Of a stretch of 64,000 nt of DNA, positions 2,810-54,645 are shown in pieces. The position numbers and the translations under genes are program-made. This DNA is from Aneurinibacillus sp. (GTDB lineage Bacteria > Bacillota > UBA5301 > DYFA01): positions 24,131 to 88,130 of the forward strand of contig DYFA01000027.1 of the NCBI GenBank assembly GCA_020725425.1. Direction: 5' to 3'. The notes under the pieces are model-generated. The model saw only the letters and a program-made list of their open reading frames with translations. It did no database searches and was not told the DNA's origin. How positions within the stretch are numbered: the stretch's first letter is position 1; every line of letters starts with the position of its first letter.

Positions 2810-4525
2810 GTGACTTCAACCCGGCTATCGCGATGGATGCGTGCACTGTCAGTGTTGGCAATCATGTTGCTTACCACGTCGTCAGGGTTAGGGGCCGGCT
2901 TGAACCTGCAAATCAGTCCACCGATGGCGGAGTTGTTTCTTGAACCAGGCGGGGAGAGGTCTCTTGACGTAGCGATCGAGAACGCGAGCGAGAGCGAAGC
3001 GGCCAGCATCCGGACCCGGCTCTTGCCTGTCGTCCAAGAACGCAAAGGGAACTATCGGGTGGCGTCCGAGCAAGAGATTCCGCCAGGAACGGCATTATCC
3101 TGGTTCCAGTTCTCATCTGAACAGTTCACCCTTCCCCCACGGAGCGCCGAGTCGGTGAACGTGAAGGTCAAGCTCCCCCGAAACGCCAGCGGAAGCCAGG
3201 CGGCTGCGCTGGTCTTCGAAGTCCTGCCGGGGACTGGGCAGGGACGTTCGGAAGGGGCCGTAGGAGGCAGCACGACGTTTGTGCACCAACTCACTTCGAT
3301 TGTCAAAGTCACCGCGAACAGCAGGGCCAACCGGAAAGCCGCCTCCATCTCCGGTCTAGCTGTGGTCAATGGGGCATCCGACCAACGTTTCCGGTCTTAC
3401 GGCGAAGAAGCGCTCGCAGTGATCTGCTCCATCGCCAACGAGGGCAACGTCTTTGTCTCGAGCCAGGGACGCTTGCTCATCAGGAACGCCGCCGGGCGAC
3501 GCATCAAAGATCTTCCCCTCAGTGATGGACGGGGTGTCATATTGCCTGGTTCGACAGTGGACCTGGTGACGATTATTCCGAAGGGGCTGCCGGAGGGCGA
3601 CTATACTGCCGAAGTCTCTGTCCGCTACGGAGGACTCCGGCCGCTTCAGGCGAGGATGCCCTTTCACGTGGCTGGCAGGAAGGCCGCGGTTGGGGAGCCG
3701 CAGGTGGCCTCGACGGTCCGGCTATTGGTTGCTCCGGAGGAAGTTGGTACCCAGCTTCCTCAGGGGGCTTTCCGGGGTTTCACGTTCAGCCTGGCAAACC
3801 TGGACAAGAGCCCCGTACAGGTATGCGGGGCCATCAAAGGGTTGGAATCGGACGAGAATGGCGGACTCATACCGGTTGACGAGCCTTCGGGGCGGTGGTC
3901 GGCAGCAAGCTGGATCAGCCTGGAACAGCACGTCATCCGCCTGGGGCCGGGAGAGAAGAAAAACTTGCGCCTGACGGCCAGCGTTCCTAAGGAAGCAACC
4001 GACGGAACCCGTTATGCCATGCTGGTTTTGGAAGCGACGCTGGAACAGCAGGGAGAATCCGGCACGGTGACCACCATCAGCACTCCGATTGTCATCACCA
4101 CTGGCAAGAATCTGACCAGGAAGGCTGAACTCACAGACACCAGGATTGCCGTGATCGAAGAATCGGGATTGCTATTGGTCGGTGCTACTCTGAAGAACCA
4201 AGGCAACACCCACTTGGCGCCTTCCGGCAAGGTCGTCCTGCGGCGGCGGGGAGTCACCCCTGCCCTTTCGGGAGGGATCGAGTATCTCGGTGAAGCCAAA
4301 TTCGAAGACGTAGCGACCATCCCGTTGCAGGAGACATCAGGCTGGCTCCTTCCCGACCATGCGCGACCGGTCGCGGCGGTGTATGATAAGCCCCTCGAAC
4401 TGGGCGAGTACCAGGGGGAGATTATTGTCGATATCGGAGACAAGCTTCCGCTGAGGGCAACGGTAACGTTCATGGTCGCCCCCCAAGGGACGGACATGAG
4501 GAAGTCCCCGGGTTCCGCCAACTAG
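2810..4525 (+). CDS. Secreted protein with an internally duplicated beta-rich domain
   Basis: GTG at 2810 lies 9 nt after GGAGGAGGA. Signal peptide (TSTRLSRWMRALSVLAIMLLTTSSGLGAG). The two halves share the pattern S.QE..PGT..S.F.FS...FTLPPRSAESVNVKV / R..SVPKEATDGTRYAMLVLE. The family is unknown. Confidence 0.55.
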   Translation: MTSTRLSRWMRALSVLAIMLLTTSSGLGAGLNLQISPPMAELFLEPGGERSLDVAIENASESEAASIRTRLLPVVQERKGNYRVASEQEIPPGTALSWFQFSSEQFTLPPRSAESVNVKVKLPRNASGSQAAALVFEVLPGTGQGRSEGAVGGSTTFVHQLTSIVKVTANSRANRKAASISGLAVVNGASDQRFRSYGEEALAVICSIANEGNVFVSSQGRLLIRNAAGRRIKDLPLSDGRGVILPGSTVDLVTIIPKGLPEGDYTAEVSVRYGGLRPLQARMPFHVAGRKAAVGEPQVASTVRLLVAPEEVGTQLPQGAFRGFTFSLANLDKSPVQVCGAIKGLESDENGGLIPVDEPSGRWSAASWISLEQHVIRLGPGEKKNLRLTASVPKEATDGTRYAMLVLEATLEQQGESGTVTTISTPIVITTGKNLTRKAELTDTRIAVIEESGLLLVGATLKNQGNTHLAPSGKVVLRRRGVTPALSGGIEYLGEAKFEDVATIPLQETSGWLLPDHARPVAAVYDKPLELGEYQGEIIVDIGDKLPLRATVTFMVAPQGTDMRKSPGSAN

Positions 4526-10183: not shown

Positions 10184-10764
10184 ATGGGCTCCCGTGGAAG
10201 TATTCGCGGCAAAGCTGCGCAAGCGAGGCAGTCGATGGGAGGTACGAGGGTGAGACGGTGGAGAGAGTGGAGCGCGAGAGTAGCAGCGGCTCTTCTGCTG
10301 CTCTCGATGCTGGTCCCGACGGCGCTGGCGGGAGACACGGGGCTCAGCGTGGCGGTCATGGACTTTGAGGACGCGTGGAGCGGACCCGGCTCGAGCAGAT
10401 CATGAAGGAGCAGAACTTCCAAGCGGGCACTGCGGTGGATGAGTCCACCGCGGTGCAGCTCGGAAGGGTGTTGGGCGTGCGGCTCATGGTCCTGGGCGCC
10501 GTGACGGAGTTCAACGTGAGAGGGATCAGCGGGCTGTCGGTCGGCAACATTGGACTGGGTGTGCAGACCGCCTCGGCCAAGGTGTCGGCTCGCTTGGTGG
10601 ACGTCCAGACTGGAGAGATCCTTGCCGCGGTGAAAGGTGAAGGCAACGCCTCCGGCGGGGCGGGCGCCATCAAGGTGGTGAGTGTGGATCCGGCGGCCTC
10701 CGTGGCCACCGTTTCAGAGTCCCAGGATGAGATCCAGGTAGGGGATGTGGTCGAGACTGAGTAA
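10184..10764 (+). pseudogene. Disrupted CsgG/TolB-N-like periplasmic protein gene (frameshifted, possibly internally deleted)
   Basis: Two overlapping ORFs in different frames (10184..10405 and 10375..10764) together encode a signal peptide, LSVAVMDFED, then LEQIMKEQNFQ...LGVRLMVLGAVTEF. This is a CsgG-like motif order, but about 40 residues between the motifs are missing. Confidence 0.4.
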
Positions 10765-31713: not shown

Positions 31714-32985
31714 CTAGACCCGACGGAGGCGCTTCCGGCGGTTGGCGAGGTAGACGTCGTCCACCACGTCGTGGATGAGGGCCATGCCGAGCAGGTGCTG
31801 GCCGGCGTCGACCACCGGGATGGCCAGGAGGTCGTACTTGGTCATCACCTCGGCCACCTCGTTCTTGTGCGCATCCTCCTTAACGAAGAGGACGTGGGGG
31901 TCCATGATCGCCCAGAGCGGCTGGTCCGGCTCAGCCACCACCAGGTCGCGCAAGGAGACCACGCCGATCAGGTGCTGCTCCCCGTCGACGACGTACAGAT
32001 AGTAGGCCGAGTCCGGGTCCGGCTTCAGCCGCCGTAACTCCTCGATGGTTTGAGCGGTAGTGAGCTCCTCCCGGAAGGAGAGCACGTCGGTGGTCATCAG
32101 GCGCCCGGCCGTGTCCTCCTCGTATTCGAGCAGTTCCCGGACGTCCTCTGCCTCCTCGTCCTCCATCTGCTCCAGGAGTTCCTGAGCCCGCCGTTCCGGC
32201 AGCTCACCCAAGATGTCGGCCGCTTCGTCGGCCGGCATCGACTCCAGGATGTCGGAGGCCTTCTCTCCCCCCAACTGTTCCAGGACATCGGCCTGCGCTT
32301 CCGGCTCCATCTCCTGCAGGGTCTCGGCGGCCACGTCCACGTTCAGGGCGGACATGACCGCCGCCCGCTCCGGCCGGTTCAGGGCCTCCAGGATGTCGGC
32401 TAGGTCCGCCGGGTGGAGCTTGCTCAGCCGCTCGTACGGCACAGCGAGCTTGACCTGGTGGGGGGCGCTGGTGATGGGTTCCACGTCCCGCCAGGAGATG
32501 AAGTAGTCCTCGATCGGCTTGGGCAGGAGCTTATCCAAGCCATGGACCAGGCGGCGCAGCCCCAGCCGGCGCAGCAGGCCGCGCAGGCCCACCTCGACGG
32601 CCACGAGCCGCAGCACGCCGTTGATCTCGGCCAGCTTGATGTCGTTGATCCGCCGTACCTTCAGCCCGTTCAGGTCGACGATCTGCTTGTCGAGGAGGTC
32701 CCGCTTGAGATGGAGCAGCTTCTCCGGGAGGGATTGCTCGTCGACCTCGTCTTTCTGCACCGAAAGGGTCAGGTACTGGCGGACGAGCACCTGGATGAGC
32801 GACCAGGGAATCCTCCGGAGGGCGCCGCGCTTCGTCCGCACCTCCAGCCCCACCACCGGCGGAAACTCCTCCCCCGGCTCGACCAGGATATCGTTCACCC
32901 TGCCCAGACGCTTGCCGAAGCGGTCGACCACTGTCTTTTCGAGTAAGCGACTCGCGTGGATCTCAGGCACGATGGCGACGGACAT
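31714..32985 (-). CDS. Soluble PRC-barrel + MgtE-N + CBS-pair protein (no channel domain)
   Basis: MgtE intracellular N domain (LADILEALN..., acidic helix) and a tandem CBS pair. It lacks the MgtE transmembrane domain. ATG at 32985 after GGGAGGTGAG. Likely co-transcribed with the NRAMP gene. Confidence 0.7.
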   Translation of the reverse strand: MSVAIVPEIHASRLLEKTVVDRFGKRLGRVNDILVEPGEEFPPVVGLEVRTKRGALRRIPWSLIQVLVRQYLTLSVQKDEVDEQSLPEKLLHLKRDLLDKQIVDLNGLKVRRINDIKLAEINGVLRLVAVEVGLRGLLRRLGLRRLVHGLDKLLPKPIEDYFISWRDVEPITSAPHQVKLAVPYERLSKLHPADLADILEALNRPERAAVMSALNVDVAAETLQEMEPEAQADVLEQLGGEKASDILESMPADEAADILGELPERRAQELLEQMEDEEAEDVRELLEYEEDTAGRLMTTDVLSFREELTTAQTIEELRRLKPDPDSAYYLYVVDGEQHLIGVVSLRDLVVAEPDQPLWAIMDPHVLFVKEDAHKNEVAEVMTKYDLLAIPVVDAGQHLLGMALIHDVVDDVYLANRRKRLRRV

Positions 32986-32994
32986 GGTTCTCAC

Positions 32995-33255
32995 CTCCCG
33001 GCATCAAAAAGCCCCCGGCTTACTTTCACCGGGGGCGGAAACTTACATGCCTCGGGTACGGGCAGGCGCCTAGCCCCCCGTCTCCGACCTGTTTCCGGCG
33101 GTGGAAGAATGGCCGATTCCCAGAAAGACAAGCTGCTGCGGACTGTGACACGGGCTCCCGTCCATCTGCCACCACCACCTTAGGCCTGGCTGGTTCTTAA
33201 GCCGATACGCTCACGCTCCACCAATAACCTACTACGCCGACCAGCGCTTGTCAAC
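32995..33255 (-). promoter_or_regulatory. Promoter plus about 225-nt structured leader ending in an intrinsic terminator just 5' of the ribosome-binding site
   Basis: Minus-strand TTGACA (33254..33249), 17-nt spacer, TAGGTT (33231..33226). The leader then ends in GCCCCCGG-ugaaaguaa-CCGGGGGC followed by UUUUUGAU, about 8 nt before GGGAGGUGAG-ATG. Confidence 0.35.
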
Positions 33256-33261
33256 CGGTCA

Positions 33262-33281
33262 AGTCCAGGGCAGTCCAGGGC
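33262..33281. repeat. Tandem direct repeat 2 x GTCCAGGGCA between divergent promoters
   Basis: Exact 10-mer repeated in tandem immediately upstream of the trp -35 element. Confidence 0.4.
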
Positions 33282-33289
33282 AGTTCCCT

Positions 33290-33319
33290 ATTGACAGACA
33301 AGCCCGGCGTGCCTTAGAA
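33290..33319 (+). promoter_or_regulatory. Sigma-A-type promoter of the trp operon
   Basis: TTGACA (33290-33295), 18-nt spacer, TAGAAT (33314-33319). Confidence 0.6.
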
Positions 33320-33342
33320 TCCTTTCAAAGGCAGTGGCGCCC

Positions 33343-33448
33343 GGAGGGGAGCCAGCCGAGTCGAGGTCACAGGTTGAGTGGAGAAGAGACGAGCAAAGAG
33401 CAGGCAGGACCCGTTCAGGTCTGACTCTTTGGAGTCGGGCCGTTTTTG
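33343..33448 (+). promoter_or_regulatory. trp leader attenuator: GAG-triplet array followed by an intrinsic terminator
   Basis: Nine GAG triplets at 33343, 33348, 33357, 33362, 33375, 33380, 33385, 33390 and 33397, mostly 2-nt spaced. These are followed by the nested hairpin GACCCG..GACUCuuugGAGUC..GGGCC and then UUUUUGUU. Confidence 0.45.
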
Positions 33449-33484
33449 TTACCTCGTCCTTCTCCCGCCCCGGAGGTGGGAAAG

Positions 33485-35803
33485 GTGTCCGCAGACTTGT
33501 CCGTCCTGCGGGAGTCGCTTCCGCTCGTCACCGCCCCGCACCCGGAGAGGGTCCGGATAAGGTTAGGGGAGGTGGTCGCCGGCGGCCCGGTCCCGGTGGT
33601 CATCGCCGGCCCCTGCGCCGTGGAGAGCCTGGCGCAGCTCCTCCAGACCGCCCGGCAGGTCAAGGCCGCCGGCGCCCACGGCTTGCGCGGCGGCGCCTTC
33701 AAGCCCCGCAGTTCCCCCTACAGCTTCCAAGGTTTGGGTCGGCCAGCTCTGGAGATGTTGGCCGCGGCCAAGGTCGAGACGGGTCTCTTCCTGACCATCG
33801 AGGTGATGCGGGAGGCTGAGGTCGACCTGGTGGCCGACTACGCCGACCTGCTCCAGATCGGCGCCCGGAACATGCAGAACTTCGCCCTGCTGCGGGCCGT
33901 GGGAAGGTGCCCCCGCCCGGTGCTGCTCAAGCGGGGGATGGCCGCCACTGTCCGGGAGTGGCTGCAGGCCGCGGAGTACATCCTTGCGGAAGGGAACCCC
34001 AGCGTCATCCTTTGCGAGCGCGGAATCCGCACCTTCGAACCGTGGACCCGCAATACCTTCGATGTCGCCGCTATCTCCCTGGTGCGCAACCTGTCCGGAC
34101 TGCCGGTCTTCGCCGACCCCAGCCACGCCGCCGGCCGGCGGGAACTCGTTCCCCCTCTGGCCCGGGCCGCTCTGGCGGCGGGGGCCGACGGCCTCCTGCT
34201 CGAGGTTCATCCCGATCCGTCGAGGGCGCTCTCCGACGGCGACCAGTCGCTCACCCTGGAGGAGTTCGCAAACCTGATGCGCGGCCTGGCCCCGTTCTGC
34301 GCCGGCCGGGAGCCGGTTTCCCGCAGGAGCCGGCCGGCGGGGATCAGCCCGGCAGCCGGTGAGTTCCCGGAACTGGCGGCCCGCGGCTACCGCCACGCCC
34401 CGGTCTTCACCCAGTTCACCAGCGACGAGCTTACGCCGGTGGGGATTTTCCGTCGCCTGGTGCATCAGGGGCCCGGCTTCCTCTTGGAAAGCGTGGAGTC
34501 CGGGGGAAACGGAGTCGGCCGGTACTCCTTCTGCGGTGACCGCCCGCTCCTGACCCTGACCGCCCGGGGCCGCCGCCTGGAGCAGAAGGGGCCCGGCCGG
34601 CTCGAGGAGGCGTCGGAGGGCGACGTCCTGGACCGGCTGCGCGAGCTCCTGGAGGTGTTCCGCGTGGCGCCGGTCGAGGGGTTACCCCGCTTCTACGGGG
34701 GAGCCGTGGGCTATTTGGGCTACGACTACGTACAGGCGTTGGAACCCATCCCTGCGACCGCCCCGGACCCGCTGGGGCTGCCGGACTCCTTCTGGCTGGT
34801 GCCGGAGCGACTCGTGGTCCTGGACCACGTCACCGGCGCGGTGACAGTGATCATCCTGGCGCCGACGGACCGGGAGGGGTACGAACGGGCCTCATCCCTC
34901 CTCGAGGCCACCCTCGCCGAACTGCGCCAACCGTGCCCGGCGCGGGAAGCGAAGCCGGAACCAGCTGGAGCCCTCCTCTCTTCGGTCTCCCAGGCGGAGT
35001 TCTGCACGGCCGTGACGAAGGCCAAAGAGTACATCGCCGGGGGTGACGCCTTCCAGGTGGTGCTCTCCCGGCGGCTGACCACCCCCTACGCCGGCGACGC
35101 CGTTGAGCTGTACCGGGCCCTGCGCTCCGAGAACCCTTCGCCCTACCTGTTCCTCCTCGACTGCGGCGGTTTCCACCTGGTCGGCTCCTCCCCGGAGATG
35201 CTGGTGCGCCTGGAGGGAACTACGGCCGAGATCCGCCCGCTGGCAGGGACCAGGCCTCGGGGCCGGGACAGCGAGGCCGACCGGGCCCTTGAGGCGGAAT
35301 TGCGGGCTGACGCCAAGGAGTGCGCCGAGCACGTCATGCTGGTGGACTTGGGCCGTAACGACCTGGGGCGGGTCTGCCGGTTCGGGAGCGTTCAAGTGCC
35401 GGAGTTGATGGGGGTGGAGCGGTTCTCCCGGGTGATGCACCTCGTCTCCCGCGTCACCGGCGAGCTGGCGCCGGGCCAGGACGCCTTTTCGCTGCTCAAG
35501 GCGGTCTTCCCCGCCGGGACGCTGACCGGCGCCCCGAAGGTGCGGGCGATGCAGCTCATCGCCGAACTGGAGCCCTTCCAACGCGGCATCTACGGCGGGG
35601 CGGTGGGGTACGTCGGGTTCAACGGCAGTCTGGACGCCTGCATCGCCATCCGCACGGCGGTCCTCTGCGACGGCCGGGTCAGCGTGCAGGCCGGAGCGGG
35701 GATCGTCGCCGACTCCGACCCGGAGCGGGAGTACGCCGAGACGGCCCACAAGGCGGCGGCCGTTCTCGCCGCCGTCCGCCGGGCGCAGGAGGGACGGTCA
35801 TGA
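33485..35803 (+). CDS. trpE: Fusion protein: DAHP synthase (class I-beta, AroG/KdsA-like) + anthranilate synthase component I (TrpE)
   Basis: N-terminal [10 protein letters not shown]...[19 protein letters not shown]...IGARNMQNF...LLKRG...[10 protein letters not shown]...[10 protein letters not shown] matches the unadorned I-beta DAHP synthase core. A roughly 30-aa linker is followed by the TrpE body (LLESVESGG...GRYSF...[15 protein letters not shown]). One continuous ORF. GTG at 33485 after GGAGGTG. Confidence 0.85.
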
Positions 35804-36360
35804 TTCTCCTGATCGACAACTACGATTCCTTCGTCTATAACCTGGCCCAGTATCTGGGAGAACTGGGGGCGGAGGTGGAGGTCCAGCGCAACGACGCCGT
35901 GGACATTGCGGCCATCGAGCAGAAGGCCCCGTCGCACCTGGTCATCTCGCCCGGCCCCGGGTACCCCCGGGACGCCGGTGTATCGCTGACTGCCGTCCGC
36001 CACTTCGCCGGCCGCCTGCCGATCCTCGGGGTCTGCCTCGGCCACCAGAGCATCGGCGAGGCCTTCGGGGGCATCGTCGTCCGCTACCAGCCGGTCCACG
36101 GCAAGACGTCGCTCATCACCCACTCCGGCCGGGGCATCTTCGCCGGCCTGCCCAACCCCTTCCGGGCGACGCGGTACCACTCGCTGGTCGTGGACGCGGC
36201 CACCTGTCCGGCGGAGCTCGAGATCACCGCCACCACCGAGCCGGGCCTGGTGATGGGGCTGGCCCACCGGCGGTGGCCGGTCTTCGGCGTCCAGTTCCAC
36301 CCCGAGTCCATCCTGACTGAGGGGGGACACCGTCTGCTCAAGAACTTTCTGGAGATGTGA
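35800..36360 (+). CDS. trpG: Anthranilate synthase component II (glutamine amidotransferase)
   Basis: Class I GATase: [15 protein letters not shown], catalytic GVCLGHQ, C-terminal HPES. ATGA overlap with trpE. Confidence 0.9.
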
Positions 36361-36398
36361 GTCCAGACGAGAGACCCGGTTGAGCCGGGAACAGCTGA

Positions 36399-37421
36399 GT
36401 GGAGGCGAGAAGAGTGATCAAAGAAGCGATAGCCATGGTAGTTCAGGGACACGACCTCAGCGCCGACGACATGGCCCGGGTGATGGACGAGGTCATGAGC
36501 GGAGAGGCCACCCCGGCGCAGATCGGGGGACTGCTGACCGCCCTTCACATGAAAGGGGAGTCGCCGGCGGAGATCGCCGGGGCGGCTCGCACCATGCGGG
36601 CCAAGGCCACCAAGGTCCCGGTGAACGGGGACGGCCTGGTCGACACCTGCGGCACAGGCGGGGACGGCAAGCGCACCTTCAACATCTCGACCACCGTGGC
36701 GTTCGTTGTCGCCGGGGCAGGGGTGCGCGTCGCCAAGCACGGGAACCGGGCCGTCTCCTCCGGCTGCGGCAGCGCCGATGTCCTGGAGGCGGTGGGAGTC
36801 AGGATCGACCTGGCTCCCGAGCGCGTCGCGGCCTGCATCGACGAGGCCGGCATCGGCTTTTTGTTCGCGCCGCTCTTCCACACGGCCATGCGCCACGCCG
36901 TCGGCCCCCGCCGGGAGCTCGGCTTTCGCACCATCTTCAACGTCCTCGGGCCCCTGGCCAATCCGGCTGGCGCCTCCCGCCAGGTCCTGGGGGTCTACGC
37001 TCCCGAGCTGACCCGGACGATCGGCCGGGTTCTCCTGGACCTGGGGACGGAGCACAGCCTGGTGGTGCACGGGGCGGGCGGCGCTGACGAGTTGACCCTC
37101 GCCGGCCCCAACCTGGTCTGCGAGTGCCGGGGAGGCGAGCTCCGGGAGTACACTCTCCGGCCGTCCGACGTGGGGCTCCGGGAAGCCCCCCTGTCGGCTC
37201 TGGCCGGCGGGGACGCCCGGGAGAACGGGGAGATCATGCTCCGGGTCCTGCGGGGGGAGGAGGGACCGCGCCGGGAGGCGGTGCTCTTGAACGCCGCCGC
37301 GGCCCTGGTCGCCGCCGGGCGGGCCCGGGACCTGGCGGAGGGCGTCTCTCTGGCGGCCGAGTCGATCGACCGCGGGGCGGCTCTGGCCGCGCTGGAGCGG
37401 CTTCGCCGGGTGGCAGCCTGA
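36399..37421 (+). CDS. trpD: Anthranilate phosphoribosyltransferase
   Basis: Signature DTCGTGGDG and GAGVRVAKHGNRAVSSGCGSADVLEA. Alternative GTG start at 36414 after GGAGG. Confidence 0.9.
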   Translation: MEARRVIKEAIAMVVQGHDLSADDMARVMDEVMSGEATPAQIGGLLTALHMKGESPAEIAGAARTMRAKATKVPVNGDGLVDTCGTGGDGKRTFNISTTVAFVVAGAGVRVAKHGNRAVSSGCGSADVLEAVGVRIDLAPERVAACIDEAGIGFLFAPLFHTAMRHAVGPRRELGFRTIFNVLGPLANPAGASRQVLGVYAPELTRTIGRVLLDLGTEHSLVVHGAGGADELTLAGPNLVCECRGGELREYTLRPSDVGLREAPLSALAGGDARENGEIMLRVLRGEEGPRREAVLLNAAAALVAAGRARDLAEGVSLAAESIDRGAALAALERLRRVAA

Positions 37422-37423
37422 CC

Positions 37424-38254
37424 ATGTCCTTTCTCTCGGCTATCCTGGAAGCCAAACGCGCGGAGGTCCGCCGGGCCAGGCGCCGTGTCCCCGAGGCAAT
37501 CCTGGCGGCCAGCCCCCGCCCCGCCCGGCGGGACTTCTCCGCCAGCCTGCGGCAGGAAGGCCTTTCGGTCATCGCCGAGGTGAAGCGGGCTTCCCCGTCC
37601 AGAGGCCCTCTGGCCCCGGACCTCGACCTCGGCTGGCTGGTCAGCCGGTACGAGGCGGGGGGCGCCGCCGCGGTCTCCGTGTTGACCGACGGACGGTTCT
37701 TCGCGGGAAGCCTCGCCGACCTGCGAGCCATCCGGGAGCTGACCTCCCTGCCCCTATTGCGCAAGGACTTCCTGATCGACCCGTACCAGGTGGTCGAGGC
37801 GGCTGCGGCGGGGGCCGACGCCGTGCTGCTGATCGTCGCCTGCCTCAGTGCCCCTCAGTTGTCCGAGCTCTTGGCGGCGGCGGAGGAACAAGGTCTGGCG
37901 GCCTTGGTCGAGGTCCACACCCCAGCCGAACTGCAGACGGCCGTCGCCGCGGGAGCCAGGATCGTCGGACTCAACAATCGGGACCTCCACACGTTTGCAG
38001 TCGACCCGGGGACCACTCTGAGGCTGTTGCCGGAGGTTCCCCGGGGGTGCCTGGTGGTGGCGGAGAGCGGACTCCGTCAGCCGGAGGAGGCGGCCGCCCT
38101 GGCCCGGGCAGGGGTGGACGCCGTCCTGGTCGGGGAGGCCCTGGTCAAGAGCCCCGATCCGGCCGGACTGATCCGGGCTTTCCGGTTGTCGGCGGCGCGG
38201 AGATCCGCCGGACAGGTCCCTGCCGGAGAGGGGGACCGAGAGCATGTTTGTTAA
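37424..38254 (+). CDS. trpC: Indole-3-glycerol phosphate synthase
   Basis: TIM-barrel motifs (SVIAEVKRASPS; LRKDF; VGLNNRDL; ESG). ATG 3 nt after the trpD stop. Confidence 0.9.
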   Translation: MSFLSAILEAKRAEVRRARRRVPEAILAASPRPARRDFSASLRQEGLSVIAEVKRASPSRGPLAPDLDLGWLVSRYEAGGAAAVSVLTDGRFFAGSLADLRAIRELTSLPLLRKDFLIDPYQVVEAAAAGADAVLLIVACLSAPQLSELLAAAEEQGLAALVEVHTPAELQTAVAAGARIVGLNNRDLHTFAVDPGTTLRLLPEVPRGCLVVAESGLRQPEEAAALARAGVDAVLVGEALVKSPDPAGLIRAFRLSAARRSAGQVPAGEGDREHVC

Positions 38255-38879
38255 GATCTGCGGCCTGACCCGGGTCGACGAAGCGGTGGCGGCGGCAGAG
38301 GCCGGGGCCACCGCCATCGGGTTTGTCTTCGCCTCCTCCCCCCGACGGGTATCGCCCGCTCAGGCCCGGGTCATCGGGGAACGGCTGCCGCCGGGAGTCC
38401 TGCGGGTGGGGGTGTTCGTCTCGCCTGCGCCAGACGAGGTCGAGCAGACCCTGGCTGAGGCCGGCCTGGACCTGGCCCAGATTCATGGCGCCTTCCCGGA
38501 AGAAGGGTGGCTGCGCCTGGGCGATCGGGCGATCAGGGGGGTCAGGGTGGGGCAGGATGAACCCCACCCTGCTCTGACCACCGGCCGGCCGCGCTTTCTC
38601 CTGCTCGACACCTACCAGCCGGGGCTGGCCGGAGGAACCGGCCGGACCTTTGCCTGGTCCAAGGCCGGGGCCTTCCGGGCGCTGGGCCTGCCGCTCCTGA
38701 TCGCCGGAGGATTGGCCCCCAGCAACGTCCGGGCCGCTCTGACGGCCACGCGGCCGGCCGGAGTCGACGTGTCGAGCGGGGTGGAATCCTGCCCCGGGCG
38801 CAAGGACCCCGCCCTGGTCGCGGCCTTCCTGGCGGCGGTCCGGGAGTGGGAGGAGTCATTCGGAAGCAAAGGAGAGTAA
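38244..38879 (+). CDS. trpF: Phosphoribosylanthranilate isomerase
   Basis: MFVKICGLT...LLDT...GGTG...AGGL pattern typical of TrpF. Confidence 0.85.
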
Positions 38880-38884
38880 GGCAG

Positions 38885-40060
38885 ATGCGAGGCTACTTCG
38901 GTCCCTACGGAGGCCAGTTCGTGCCGGAGACCGTGATGGCGGCCCTGGAAGAGCTCGAGCAGGCATACGCCCGCTACCGCGAGGATCCGGTGTTTCAGGC
39001 GGACCTGGCGGCGCTCTACCGGGACTACGCCGGGCGACCCACCCCGCTCTACCACGCCCGGCGCCTCAGCGCCGAGGCGGGCGGGGCCCAGATCCACCTC
39101 AAGCGGGAGGACCTGAACCACACCGGCGCCCACAAGCTTAACAACACCCTCGGCCAGATCCTGCTGGCGCAGCGCATGGGGAAGCGGCGCATCGTGGCCG
39201 AGACCGGCGCCGGGCAGCACGGGGTGGCCACCGCCACCGTGGCGGCCCTCTTCGGGTGCGAGTGCGTGATCTACATGGGCGCCAAGGACATGGCGCGCCA
39301 GGCGCCGAACGTCGCCCGGATGCGCATGCTAGGCGCCGAGGTCAGGGCGGTCGCCTCCGGGAGCCAGACGTTGAAAGACGCCACCAGTGAGGCCATCCGG
39401 GACTGGGTCACCAACGTGGAGGACACCTATTACCTGATCGGCTCGGTGGTCGGCCCTCACCCCTATCCCACCATCGTCCGGGACTTCCAGGCAATCATCG
39501 GACGGGAGGCCCTGGCCCAGGCCAGGGAGCAGCTGGGGCGGCTGCCGGAGGCGGTCTACGCCTGCGTCGGCGGGGGGAGCAACGCCATCGGCATCTTCAC
39601 GGCGTTCCTCGCTCACCCGGAGGTCAGGCTGGTGGGGGTGGAAGCCGCCGGGTTGGGGCTCGAGACGGGAGCTCACGCCGCCACGCTCGCCTGCGGCCGG
39701 CCGGGGGTCCTGCACGGGGCGCTGAGCTATCTTCTCTGCACGAAGGAGGGTCAGATTCAGGAGGCTCACTCGATCTCGGCCGGCCTGGACTATCCCGGGG
39801 TGGGGCCGGAACACAGCTGGCTCAAGGATCAGGGACGGGTGACCTACACCGCCGCCACCGACGAGGAGGCGCTGGCCGCCTTCCACCGCCTGACCCGCCT
39901 GGAAGGGATCCTTCCGGCGCTGGAAAGCGCTCACGCCGTGGCGGCTGCCCTGCGGGACGCCGCCCGTCTCCCGGCCGGCCAGAATCTCGTGGTCAACCTC
40001 TCCGGGCGGGGGGACAAGGACCTGGCGATAGTGGCCGGGGAGGAGGGGGTCGCCGTATGA
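38885..40060 (+). CDS. trpB: Tryptophan synthase beta subunit
   Basis: PLP-binding site HTGAHKLNN, plus [18 protein letters not shown] and [19 protein letters not shown] ribosome-binding site. Confidence 0.95.
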
Positions 40061-40839
40061 ACCGGGTCGCCGAGCGTCTCGCCGGCCTGCGCGCTCAAGG
40101 CTGCAAGGCGTTCGTCCCGTTCGTCATGGCCGGCTACCCGGACCTCGAGGCCACTGCCCGACTGCTGGTCGGGCTCTCCCGGGCCGGGGCGGACGTGATC
40201 GAGCTCGGTCTGCCCTTTTCGGATCCCCTGGCCGACGGGCCGGTGAACCAGTCGGCCGCCCACGCGGCGCTGGCCGCCGGGACAACTGTCGACCGCGTCC
40301 TGGCCCTCCTGGCGTCGGTTACCCCGCACCTGGCCTGTCCAGTCATGCTCTTCACCTACCTCAACCCTGTCCTCCAGGCCGGGCCGGAGGTCTTCGCCGC
40401 CCGGGCGGCCGCCGCCGGTGCCGCCGGGCTGGTCATCCCGGATCTTCCCCCGGAGGCGGCCGGGGAGATCCGGGCGCACGCCCGGGAGCACGGCCTGGGT
40501 TTGGCTTTCCTGGTTGCCCCGACCAGTCCGGAGCAGCGTCTTCGCCTGGCCGGCCAGGCCAGCTCCGCCTTCGTGTACGCGGTCTCGCTCCGAGGCGTGA
40601 CCGGCGAACGCCAGACTCTCCCGCCCGACCTGCCGGACTTCCTCCAGCGGGTCAAGCGGCAAGTCGCGCAGCCGGTCCTGGTCGGGTTCGGGATCAGCAC
40701 GCCGGCGCAGGCCAGAGAGGCGGCGCGCTTGGCCGACGGGGTGATCGTAGGCAGCGCGCTGGTGCGACTCGCCGGGTCAGGCGGGGTGGACGCCGCCTGT
40801 GGGCTGGCGCAGGAACTGCGGGAGGCGATCCGGTGTTGA
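40057..40839 (+). CDS. trpA: Tryptophan synthase alpha subunit
   Basis: [36 protein letters not shown] overlap with trpB. Confidence 0.9.
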
Positions 40840-46613: not shown

Positions 46614-46678
46614 GGCGGCCGCCGTCAAACCTCTCTCCTACTACTCGGCTCGGTATTCGGGAATAAGCTGTAGCCGGG

Positions 46679-53254: not shown

Positions 53255-54421
53255 CTACTCCTCTCCTTCCGCCTGCCGGATAGTCAACGGCCGGAACGGG
53301 GTGGTGGCCGGGAGCGGCTGAACCGGCGGGTTCAGGGCGAACCGGCCGGCCCGCACCTCCTCCCGGAGCAGAGCGGCGATCCGGCGGGCCTTGGCCAGGC
53401 TGCTCAGGGGAGCAGTGGGAACGCGCCGGCCCTGCAGGGTCACGGCGCCGCTGCGCAGCTCGGCGTAGCTTACCTGCGCCAGCGCCGGCCGGGACCGGAC
53501 GGGGACGCCGTAATCGTAGACGCTGGTCAGGATATCCTTGTCCCGGATGGCCAACTGGGCGGCGAGGTCCTGGTCCAGTACCGGGATAGGGACGCCGACA
53601 CCGACGTAGAGCGTCACCCCGTAACGGTGGAAAACCGCCGCCCGGAGGTACTCGCGGCTCATCTCCTTCAGGTTGCCGATCAGCGCCAGGGTCCCCGCCC
53701 CGCCCAGCGGCACCCCCTGATCTGTCCGCTTGACGGCCGGGTTGTGCTGCGTCCCCTCCCAGGCCACGTAACCCTGGGCGCCGCCGAGGAAGACCCGTGT
53801 GCCGACCCCGATGGTGCGGTAGTACGGGTCGTTCAGGAGCGGGCTCAACTGGCCGGCGGTGGAGTAGGTGACGTTGCCGTACCTGGGCAGGAGAGTGCCC
53901 ATGTAGGTGTAGATGGTCCGGTCGGACCCGTTGGTCGCCGCAGCGTAGTTCTGGTAGGCGTTGCGGGGGTTGAAGAGATAGGCCTGGTTGACCTCGCGCA
54001 GGCTCACCCAGGTCTCCACCTCGCGCCGGGGGTAGCAGTCGGTTCCCTGGGAGACCGCCCGCAGCCGTACCCGTTTCCCGGCCACCAGTTCCTCGATGAC
54101 GTGGGCCCCGCCGTAGGTCGGGTCGAGTTCGGACTGCTCGGTGGCGCCGAGGTAGGCGTCCACGGCTGCCAGGCCTCCATAGGCCGGAACGCCGTTGAGC
54201 CAGACCCGGCTCATCTTGATCGGCGGGTCGGCGTGCCCGAAGTTCAGAAAAGCCCCGGAAGAACACATGGCGCCGAAGGTGGCGGTGGTGACCACGTCCA
54301 CCGTCTCGGCGGCCCGGTCAACCCCCTGCTCGTCGACCGCCTTCAGGAATTCCTCCTTGGTCAGGACGACCGCTTTCCCTTGGCGTATGCGGTGTGCGAT
54401 CTCTTCGTAGCTCTTGGCCAT
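53255..54421 (-). CDS. COG1900/DUF39 homocysteine biosynthesis protein (sulfide-dependent route)
   Basis: Characteristic N-terminus MAKSYEEIAHRIRQGKAVVLTKEEF...VDVVTTATFGAMCSSGAFLNFG...WLNGVPAYGG.AAVDAYLGAT. The gene is preceded by a SAM riboswitch. Confidence 0.7.
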   Translation of the reverse strand: MAKSYEEIAHRIRQGKAVVLTKEEFLKAVDEQGVDRAAETVDVVTTATFGAMCSSGAFLNFGHADPPIKMSRVWLNGVPAYGGLAAVDAYLGATEQSELDPTYGGAHVIEELVAGKRVRLRAVSQGTDCYPRREVETWVSLREVNQAYLFNPRNAYQNYAAATNGSDRTIYTYMGTLLPRYGNVTYSTAGQLSPLLNDPYYRTIGVGTRVFLGGAQGYVAWEGTQHNPAVKRTDQGVPLGGAGTLALIGNLKEMSREYLRAAVFHRYGVTLYVGVGVPIPVLDQDLAAQLAIRDKDILTSVYDYGVPVRSRPALAQVSYAELRSGAVTLQGRRVPTAPLSSLAKARRIAALLREEVRAGRFALNPPVQPLPATTPFRPLTIRQAEGEE

Positions 54422-54439
54422 GCCGTTCCCTCCTTGCCG

Positions 54440-54645
54440 GTCTCTGCCCCGCCCCGCGGCGGGGCGTAAAGAAAGCGCCTGTTCCCTTGAGTGGAAAGGC
54501 GCCGGACAGGCCGTTTCTCATCTCTCAGGAACTGCTTCCTGCAGGATTTGGCACCGCACGGCCGGGCCGCCGGTTGCCGAGGCTTCATCGGGCCAGTCCC
54601 TCCACCTCTCGCGATGAGACCTTTGTGGTATGCGGTTGTAGTTGT
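54440..54645 (-). promoter_or_regulatory. SAM-I (S-box) riboswitch with terminator-like expression platform
   Basis: Minus strand reads CUCAUCgcGAGAGGUGGAGGGACUGGCCCGAUGAAGCCUCGGCAACC...GUGCGGUGCCAAAUCCUGCAGGAAG...GAGAUGAGA, which matches the SAM-I core and P1 pairing. It is followed by GGCGCC...GGCGCUUUCUUUA. Confidence 0.8.

Follow-up and report, generated by a model that had tools for sequence, protein, structure and literature searches.

Does the leader of the trp operon in the 64,000-nucleotide (nt) stretch of Aneurinibacillus sp. [quoted passage not shown] The leader sits inside a 490-nt intergenic region, where a promoter, an array of GAG triplets, an overlapping antiterminator, an intrinsic terminator and a Shine–Dalgarno (SD) sequence follow one another in the right order within the roughly 160 nt that precede a complete trp operon. 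Because these parts and their order match the B. subtilis trp leader, they are best explained as a protein-mediated attenuator of the TRAP type, with a B. subtilis-like build and a translational block besides, and we put the probability of this explanation at about 0.8. A preliminary description of this DNA had proposed a TRAP-type attenuator on the basis of a sigma-A promoter, GAG triplets, a hairpin with a U tract and a ribosome site ahead of the first gene. All of these elements were found where it had placed them, and the proposal is supported by an antiterminator, a 5′ stem-loop and an SD hairpin that we found besides.

The promoter scan located TTGACA (33291–33296), an 18-nt spacer and TAGAAT (33315–33320) on the plus strand. 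With 11/12 matches, this sigma-A-type promoter is the sole promoter-like match from 32900 to 33700 (shuffle mean 0.0), and transcription would start at about 33327–33329, some 7 nt past TAGAAT. At the other end of the leader, the ribosome site GGAGGUGG lies upstream of the first gene of the operon, with the SD GGAGGTGG at 33472–33479 on the plus strand, 5 nt ahead of the called GTG start at 33485. It is worth mentioning that a perfect tandem repeat, AGTCCAGGGC in 2.3 copies (33262–33284), stands directly 5′ of the −35 hexamer; it is not present in the related locus L006 described below, and could be a protein-binding site.

The leader contains nine GAG triplets, as the preliminary description had counted, with starts at 33344, 33349, 33358, 33363, 33376, 33381, 33386, 33391 and 33398. 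The array proper, which is the proposed TRAP-binding site, runs from 33358 to 33400 on the plus strand and reads GAG tc GAG gtca CAG gtt GAG tg GAG aa GAG ac GAG caaa GAG, that is, seven GAG and one in-register CAG (33370) with spacers of 2, 4, 3, 2, 2, 2 and 4 nt. The same description had allowed that the repeats might be a coincidence of a purine-rich, SD-like leader. On such a rival reading the hairpin would be a partial terminator that is unregulated or otherwise regulated. The number of triplets agrees with such a by-product, as it is unremarkable by itself: at least nine GAG occurred in 1678 of 5000 dinucleotide shuffles of the leader (34%), and the window holds a second GAG-dense stretch at the start of an unrelated gene (10216–10302). 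The spacing does not agree with it. A chain score that rewards (G/U)AG triplets set 2–3 nt apart gave 6.7 for the leader, a value reached by none of the 5000 shuffles, and the register of the array is thus highly non-random.

The same score was applied to 80 loci with relatives of trpE from many phyla (1.74 Mb, both strands), which are the matches listed from a scan of genome contigs with the fusion protein encoded by the first gene; the source genome is not among them. The sole chain scoring at least 6 in these loci was the homologous leader of L006, with 9.0. Of the 79 other loci listed, 78 have no comparable array upstream of trpE, the exceptions to this absence being the L006 leader and a leader of textbook TRAP type in a Desulfotomaculum metagenome-assembled genome (MAG), L009. 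A strict pattern of four GAG-NN units, GAGNNGAGNNGAGNNGAG, has two matches in the window, where 0.01 would be expected; both are on the sense strand of the trp operon, and the other 113 loci examined contain none. A metagenome scan with a DNA pattern of the leader (GGAGAAG...CTTCTCCCNCCCNGGAGG) returned 14 matches, all in unrelated coding sequences.

Two further clusters in the window were considered as sites and set aside. The stretch at 10216–10302 is the most GAG-dense of the window (10 GAG in 57 nt), and it was rejected as a TRAP site for its irregular spacing and its position in a frameshifted gene for a secreted protein, where it encodes an R/E/W-rich start; its GAG density is probably due to chance. 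It spans the ribosome-binding site and the first codons (VRRWREWSARV...) of this signal-peptide gene, whose frame appears to be broken, since it stops after about 52 codons and goes on in the open reading frame (ORF) 10375–10764. A minus-strand cluster at 46651 is made of overlapping triplets.

L006 (contig JBLNCE010000196.1, 63% GC) carries the same fusion of DAHP synthase (DAHPS) and TrpE as the window, collinear and with 70% amino acid (aa) identity. It is the only fusion-bearing relative among the 80 loci listed, the other 79 matching only the TrpE part. The contig is labelled “Bacteroidota bacterium”, a label that sits badly with the presence of a sigma-A promoter and of a TRAP-type leader. 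Where the two fusion genes encode the same residue, their third codon positions are only 54% identical, and neutral sites are therefore near saturation. Against this background both promoter hexamers are identical, and the leader retains perfect blocks of 8–15 nt in the 5′ stem-loop, the triplets, the terminator arm, the anti-SD and the SD: AGGCAGTGGC (33329–33338), GCCAGCCGAGTCGA (33351–33364), GGAGAAGAGACGAGC (33380–33394), CTGACTCT (33421–33428), CGTCCTTCTCCC (33455–33466) and GGAGGTGGG (33472–33480).

A comparison of leaders between relatives had been suggested as a check on the TRAP proposal, and it shows that the triplet register is kept. In L006 the array is GAG tc GAG tccc GAG tc TAG cg GAG aa GAG ac GAG ccg GAG ca GAG tatg GAG, which makes 10 (G/U)AG with spacers of 2, 4, 2, 2, 2, 2, 3, 2 and 4 nt. 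The CAG of the window (33370) is a GAG in L006 and the GAG at 33376 is a TAG, while the spacer sequences have changed and the spacer lengths differ by one nt. Triplets that are kept while spacers change are the pattern expected if the triplets, and not the spacers, are read. Not all of the nine GAG share this behaviour. Those at 33344 and 33349 are CAG and GGG in L006 and lie inside a near-invariant stem-loop, so that these two, which had been counted in the array, belong to the 5′ stem-loop instead. The retention of the other triplets against a near-saturated neutral background also argues against a by-product of a purine-rich leader, as does the precise pairing of the last triplets with the 5′ arm of the terminator in both genomes. 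Taken with the shuffles, this makes coincidence very improbable.

Transcripts were folded from the inferred start at 33328. The 5′ stem-loop, GGCAGUGGCGCCC-GGAG-GGGAGCCAGCC (33330–33357, plus strand), is predicted in every fold and holds the GAGs at 33344 and 33349 in its loop and 3′ arm. In L006 it is nearly invariant: a U.G pair stands in place of a G/A mismatch of the window, and GCAG in place of GGAG in the loop. The array region is mostly unstructured in the predicted folds. Two mutually exclusive pairings share one strand. In the antiterminator (33394–33431, plus strand), CAAAGAGCAGGC (33394–33405), which includes the last GAG, pairs with GUCUGACUCUUUG (33419–33431), where the terminator has its 5′ arm and its loop; this is the minimum free energy (MFE) structure of the transcript without the terminator 3′ arm (−15.9 kcal/mol). 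In the intrinsic terminator, or attenuator (33418–33450, plus strand, −16.2 kcal/mol), a 10-bp GC-rich hairpin at 33418–33441 is followed by GUUUUUGUU, with GTTTTTGTT after the hairpin. L006 has counterparts of both, namely an antiterminator in which GAGcAGAGU, covering its triplets 8–9, pairs with ACUCUCUU in the arm and loop of the terminator (−14.6 kcal/mol), and a terminator GGCCUGAC...GUCAGGCC followed by UUUUGUGUU (−18.9 kcal/mol). In both leaders, therefore, the modelled antiterminator takes its 5′ strand from the triplet array. A window-specific pairing of CGAGGUCACAG with UUGUUACCUCG, seen in one MFE structure, was dropped as it is impossible in L006.

A second switch is predicted closer to the start codon. 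The anti-SD segment and the SD-sequestering hairpin (33453–33485, plus strand) pair CCUUCUCCCGCC (from 33458) with GGAGGUGGGAAAGG, which covers the SD and, in the window, the first base of the GTG start. In both leaders the hairpin has the form CCUUCUCCC(G/A)CC : GGAGGUGGG, with −15.5 kcal/mol in the window and −10.2 kcal/mol in L006, where the G to A difference turns a G.U pair into A-U. The triplet block GGAGAAGAGACGAG (33380–33393) offers the anti-SD strand CUCGUCCUUCUCC (33453–33465) a second complementary partner. This alternative duplex has −20.1 kcal/mol in the window and −17.1 kcal/mol in L006, its strands lie in blocks that are 100% conserved, and the full window leader, folded without constraints, contains the pairing in its MFE structure. 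As the anti-SD strand can pair in two ways, a hold on the triplet block would free it for the SD. When the array is constrained to be single-stranded, the terminator and the SD hairpin fold in both leaders.

From these elements we propose the following mechanism. The nascent RNA would fold the 5′ stem-loop and then present the GAG array in its approximately 5-nt register. With ample tryptophan, a ring of tryptophan-loaded TRAP, encoded elsewhere in the genome, would wrap the array and keep CAAAGAGCAGGC from forming the antiterminator, so that the GC-rich hairpin and U tract would form and transcription would stop at about 33445–33450. On transcripts that escape, TRAP would keep GGAGAAGAGACGAG off the anti-SD strand, and the freed anti-SD would close over the SD and the start codon of the first gene and block translation. 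With scarce tryptophan the array would stay free, the antiterminator would form first and the polymerase would read through, while the triplet block would hold the anti-SD strand and leave the SD open.

This scheme follows closely what is known from B. subtilis. Its trp leader carries 11 (G/U)AG spaced by 2–3 nt that are bound by tryptophan-activated TRAP, an antiterminator that shares sequence with this binding site, and an attenuator with an interrupted U stretch (PMC3064811, PMC3913778, PMC7430163); a 5′ stem-loop at the equivalent place and a mapped structure that sequesters the ribosome-binding site are described as well (PMC3913778). The window leader resembles that of B. subtilis trpEDCFBA in its promoter, its 5′ stem-loop, an array in an approximately 5-nt register, an antiterminator over the distal triplets, a hairpin with an interrupted U tract, and a ribosome-binding-site hairpin whose anti-SD can pair with the triplets instead. 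The two leaders also differ. The window leader is more compact, its terminator lying at about +91 to +114 as compared to +108 to +133 in B. subtilis, and its first gene is the DAHPS–TrpE fusion, whereas B. subtilis trpE lies inside the aro supraoperon. In B. subtilis a weak attenuator depends on TRAP for its function and overlaps the antiterminator by 3 nt (PMC3064811). Its hairpin has −12.6 kcal/mol and 40% GC, whereas that of the window is GC-rich with −16 kcal/mol and shares 13 nt with the antiterminator. As TRAP is thought to be needed in B. subtilis for a weak attenuator, a leader with a strong terminator and a long overlap offers a natural contrast.

Leader-peptide (ribosome-mediated) and T-box (tRNA-mediated) attenuation are common for the trp operons of other Gram-positive bacteria. 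The preliminary description had seen neither a T-box nor a leader peptide with tandem tryptophan codons, and both absences held. The leader measures about 120 nt from transcription start to terminator, and reading of the leader sequence revealed no SD-preceded short ORF and no tandem TGG. Three TGGs occur, isolated and never sharing one plausible ORF, and the only ORFs that start in the leader (33334–33819 and 33378–33560) enter the first gene out of frame. An Rfam search of the whole window at the gathering score found only an S-adenosylmethionine (SAM) riboswitch and no T-box (RF00230), and at E ≤ 10 nothing relevant, whether T-box or another family, was found for 33200–33560. Judged from the sequence, these two forms of attenuation are effectively refuted here.

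Several points weigh against the TRAP-type explanation. The array is shorter and less regular than that of B. subtilis, with seven GAG and one CAG in the window (10 triplets in L006, 11 in B. subtilis), a 4-nt spacer and, unless the CAG is counted, a 10-nt gap. The comparative support comes from one close relative with little true covariation. The terminator is strong, overlaps the antiterminator extensively, and is already included in the unconstrained MFE of the full-length leader; read-through must therefore rely on the antiterminator forming first, by co-transcriptional kinetics. Finally, mtrB was not found in the 64-kb window, either by tblastn, where the Geobacillus TRAP gave only noise (best E 0.48), or with the family hidden Markov model against all six-frame ORFs (best E 4.6, no TRAP). 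The window matches contig JASEFQ010000015.1 of MAG GCA_030019095.1 (“Bacillota bacterium”; zero mismatches across the 20.8 kb compared), and a Logan contig of run SRR23186779 likewise encodes its TrpA, and none of the eight TRAP proteins traced to contigs comes from GCA_030019095.1 or SRR23186779. The doubt that is left on the TRAP reading is mostly the chance that this genome has no mtrB.

Such a genome would call for a different reader. The leader could be a real switch in a lineage without mtrB that is operated by an unrelated RNA-binding protein or by direct ligand sensing. That mtrB is not tied to this genome fits this possibility, and so does the lower number of canonical triplets as compared to B. 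subtilis sites. However, (G/U)AG on a 5-nt register with free spacers is the specific signature of TRAP (PMC3064811, PMC7430163); the array is mostly unstructured, unlike a riboswitch aptamer, and has no Rfam match; and TRAP genes are widespread in non-Bacillus Bacillota, high-GC MAGs included. We consider a non-TRAP reader unlikely. The more specific proposal that the genome lacks mtrB, and that the leader together with a cluster at trpD (described below) is read by a different, undescribed tryptophan-responsive factor, appears somewhat less probable again; if true, it would mean that TRAP-like operators were captured by, or are older than, another regulator in an uncultured high-GC lineage of Bacillota.

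TRAP itself is present in comparable organisms. The family (PF02081) is represented by 127 clusters in a full scan of 1.84 billion representatives. The best 120 matches of three protein searches came, one search each, from Bacillaceae, from Dormibacteraeota and from mixed Clostridia-like or high-GC MAGs, and members were found in Candidatus Dormibacteraeota MAGs, Caldicoprobacter, Hydrogenispora and Syntrophothermus. The TRAP family reaches well beyond Bacilli. PF02081 genes also occur in Bacillota-like MAGs of 60–67% GC, namely P0147 (GCA_014896355.1, locus 67% GC), P0385 (GCA_050260635.1, JBLNCL), P0370 (GCA_050260095.1, JBLNBQ) and P0467 (a Logan contig of SRR17828886). The prefixes JBLNCL and JBLNBQ adjoin the JBLNCE of L006, which suggests one sequencing project.

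In the alignment of the TRAPs from high-GC MAGs, the E-K/R-L-D and K-x-R residues are invariant, and likewise the glycine, threonine and histidine that we take to belong to the tryptophan pocket. The former correspond to K37, K56 and R58, the RNA-binding residues of B. subtilis TRAP (PMC7430163). With RNA-binding and pocket residues invariant, a GAG-reading TRAP is plausible in the lineage. We did not find a directly usable source on the taxonomic distribution of TRAP in the literature.

The genomic setting of these genes is distinct from that in B. subtilis, where mtrB is part of the mtrAB operon. In the six loci with sufficient flanking sequence (P0147, P0385, P0370, P0467, P0382 and P0486), mtrB has dnaE/pgpA, in some cases with a malic-enzyme gene, on one side and accD–accA on the other, usually with pfkA and/or pyk next; P0143 and P0371, whose loci are shorter, have some of these neighbours too. 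The comparable MAGs thus have a dnaE–accDA–pfkA–pyk locus. Loci L005, L086, L089, L105, L108 and L112, from Bacillota-like MAGs other than Bacillus, show the order dnaE–pgpA–(malic enzyme)–mtrB–small ORF (59–89 aa)–accD–accA–pfkA–pyk and not an mtrA–mtrB operon. Several of the MAGs with TRAP loci, as well as L006, are labelled Bacteroidota, Chitinophagales, Betaproteobacteria or Methylocystaceae, and these labels look inconsistent with their gene content.

Two other groups of TRAP homologs came out of the searches. A large, tight clade from Candidatus Dormibacteraeota MAGs (P0155, P0250–P0367), outside Bacillota, has cores that are 88–100% identical, R-rich, with N-terminal extensions. In addition, ten proteins of 440–2268 aa (P0189, P0216, P0226–P0229, P0231, P0238, P0241 and P0244) contain 2–7 tandem TRAP-like domains, each of which covers most of the 75-aa TRAP at 22–34% identity.

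The only other match of GAGNNGAGNNGAGNNGAG in the window marks a candidate second TRAP site in the 39-nt trpG–trpD junction (36392–36414, plus strand), which reads CAG ct GAG tg GAG gc GAG aa GAG. This cluster, CAGctGAGtgGAGgcGAGaaGAG, overlies the SD of trpD (GGAGG, 36401–36405) and touches its GTG start (36414), and by its position it may act as a translational operator for TRAP. In B. subtilis, TRAP blocks the translation of trpG, trpP and ycbK, whose operators have about nine triplets. The trpD cluster is like the operators of trpG (pabA), trpP and ycbK in covering both SD and start codon, and unlike them in having 4–5 regularly spaced triplets and a different target gene, trpD. As the cluster is not conserved in L006, where the trpG–trpD junction is longer and irregular, this assignment is tentative. 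Regulation of trpG by TRAP is cited in PMC3913778 (ref. 14) and PMC7430163.

TRAP attenuation is a textbook mechanism, yet nearly all work on it concerns Bacillus and its close relatives. The window, with 67.6% GC, provides a new example of this well-known mechanism in an uncultured bacterium of about 68% GC. The leader of the Desulfotomaculum sp. MAG (L009, about 3399–3560 of its locus, JAJOKO010000077.1), found by the same chain scoring, has about 12 (G/U)AG just upstream of trpE, followed by a hairpin (acccggcattc...gaatgccgg) and a U run. It shares with the window the succession of triplet array, hairpin and U tract ahead of trpE, but it has 42% GC, is UAG-rich, and has neither sequence similarity to the window leader nor a DAHPS fusion. 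It shows that the TRAP leader design exists outside Bacilli. That the window leader retains every element of the B. subtilis leader, ahead of a DAHPS–TrpE fusion, suggests that the two-level design, attenuation combined with a translational block, is old and portable across Bacillota and no peculiarity of Bacillus. For annotation, the leader gives the operon a regulatory assignment and predicts that mtrB is encoded in the genome outside the window.

The operon under this leader is complete, with the order aroF/trpE–trpGDCFBA; gene coordinates were taken from Pfam and from the NCBI gene calls of the matching MAG contig (L001), shifted by +30056. All genes are on the plus strand. The first (33485–35803, GTG start, 772 aa) encodes the fusion of a type I-beta DAHP synthase with TrpE, in which DAHP_synth_1, Anth_synt_I_N and Chorismate_bind domains were found by Pfam within one ORF; it is a single gene in the NCBI MAG calls too. 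It is followed by trpG (35800–36360), trpD (36414–37421), trpC (37424–38254), trpF (38244–38879), trpB (38885–40060) and trpA (40057–40839). The fusion joins enzymes that are not consecutive in the pathway, through a linker of about 25 aa that is variable as compared to L006, and a full-text literature search found no description of it. As a speculation, the fusion could render DAHP synthase sensitive to tryptophan through the allosteric site of TrpE.

Upstream of the trp leader lies a divergent gene on the minus strand with MgtE_N, CBS and PRC domains (31714–32994), whose terminator is at 33011–33036. The SAM riboswitch is of the SAM-I (S-box) class and lies at 54515–54620 on the minus strand, where it matches over its full length with 88.8 bits; an ORF on this strand, at about 53258–54517, has it directly upstream.

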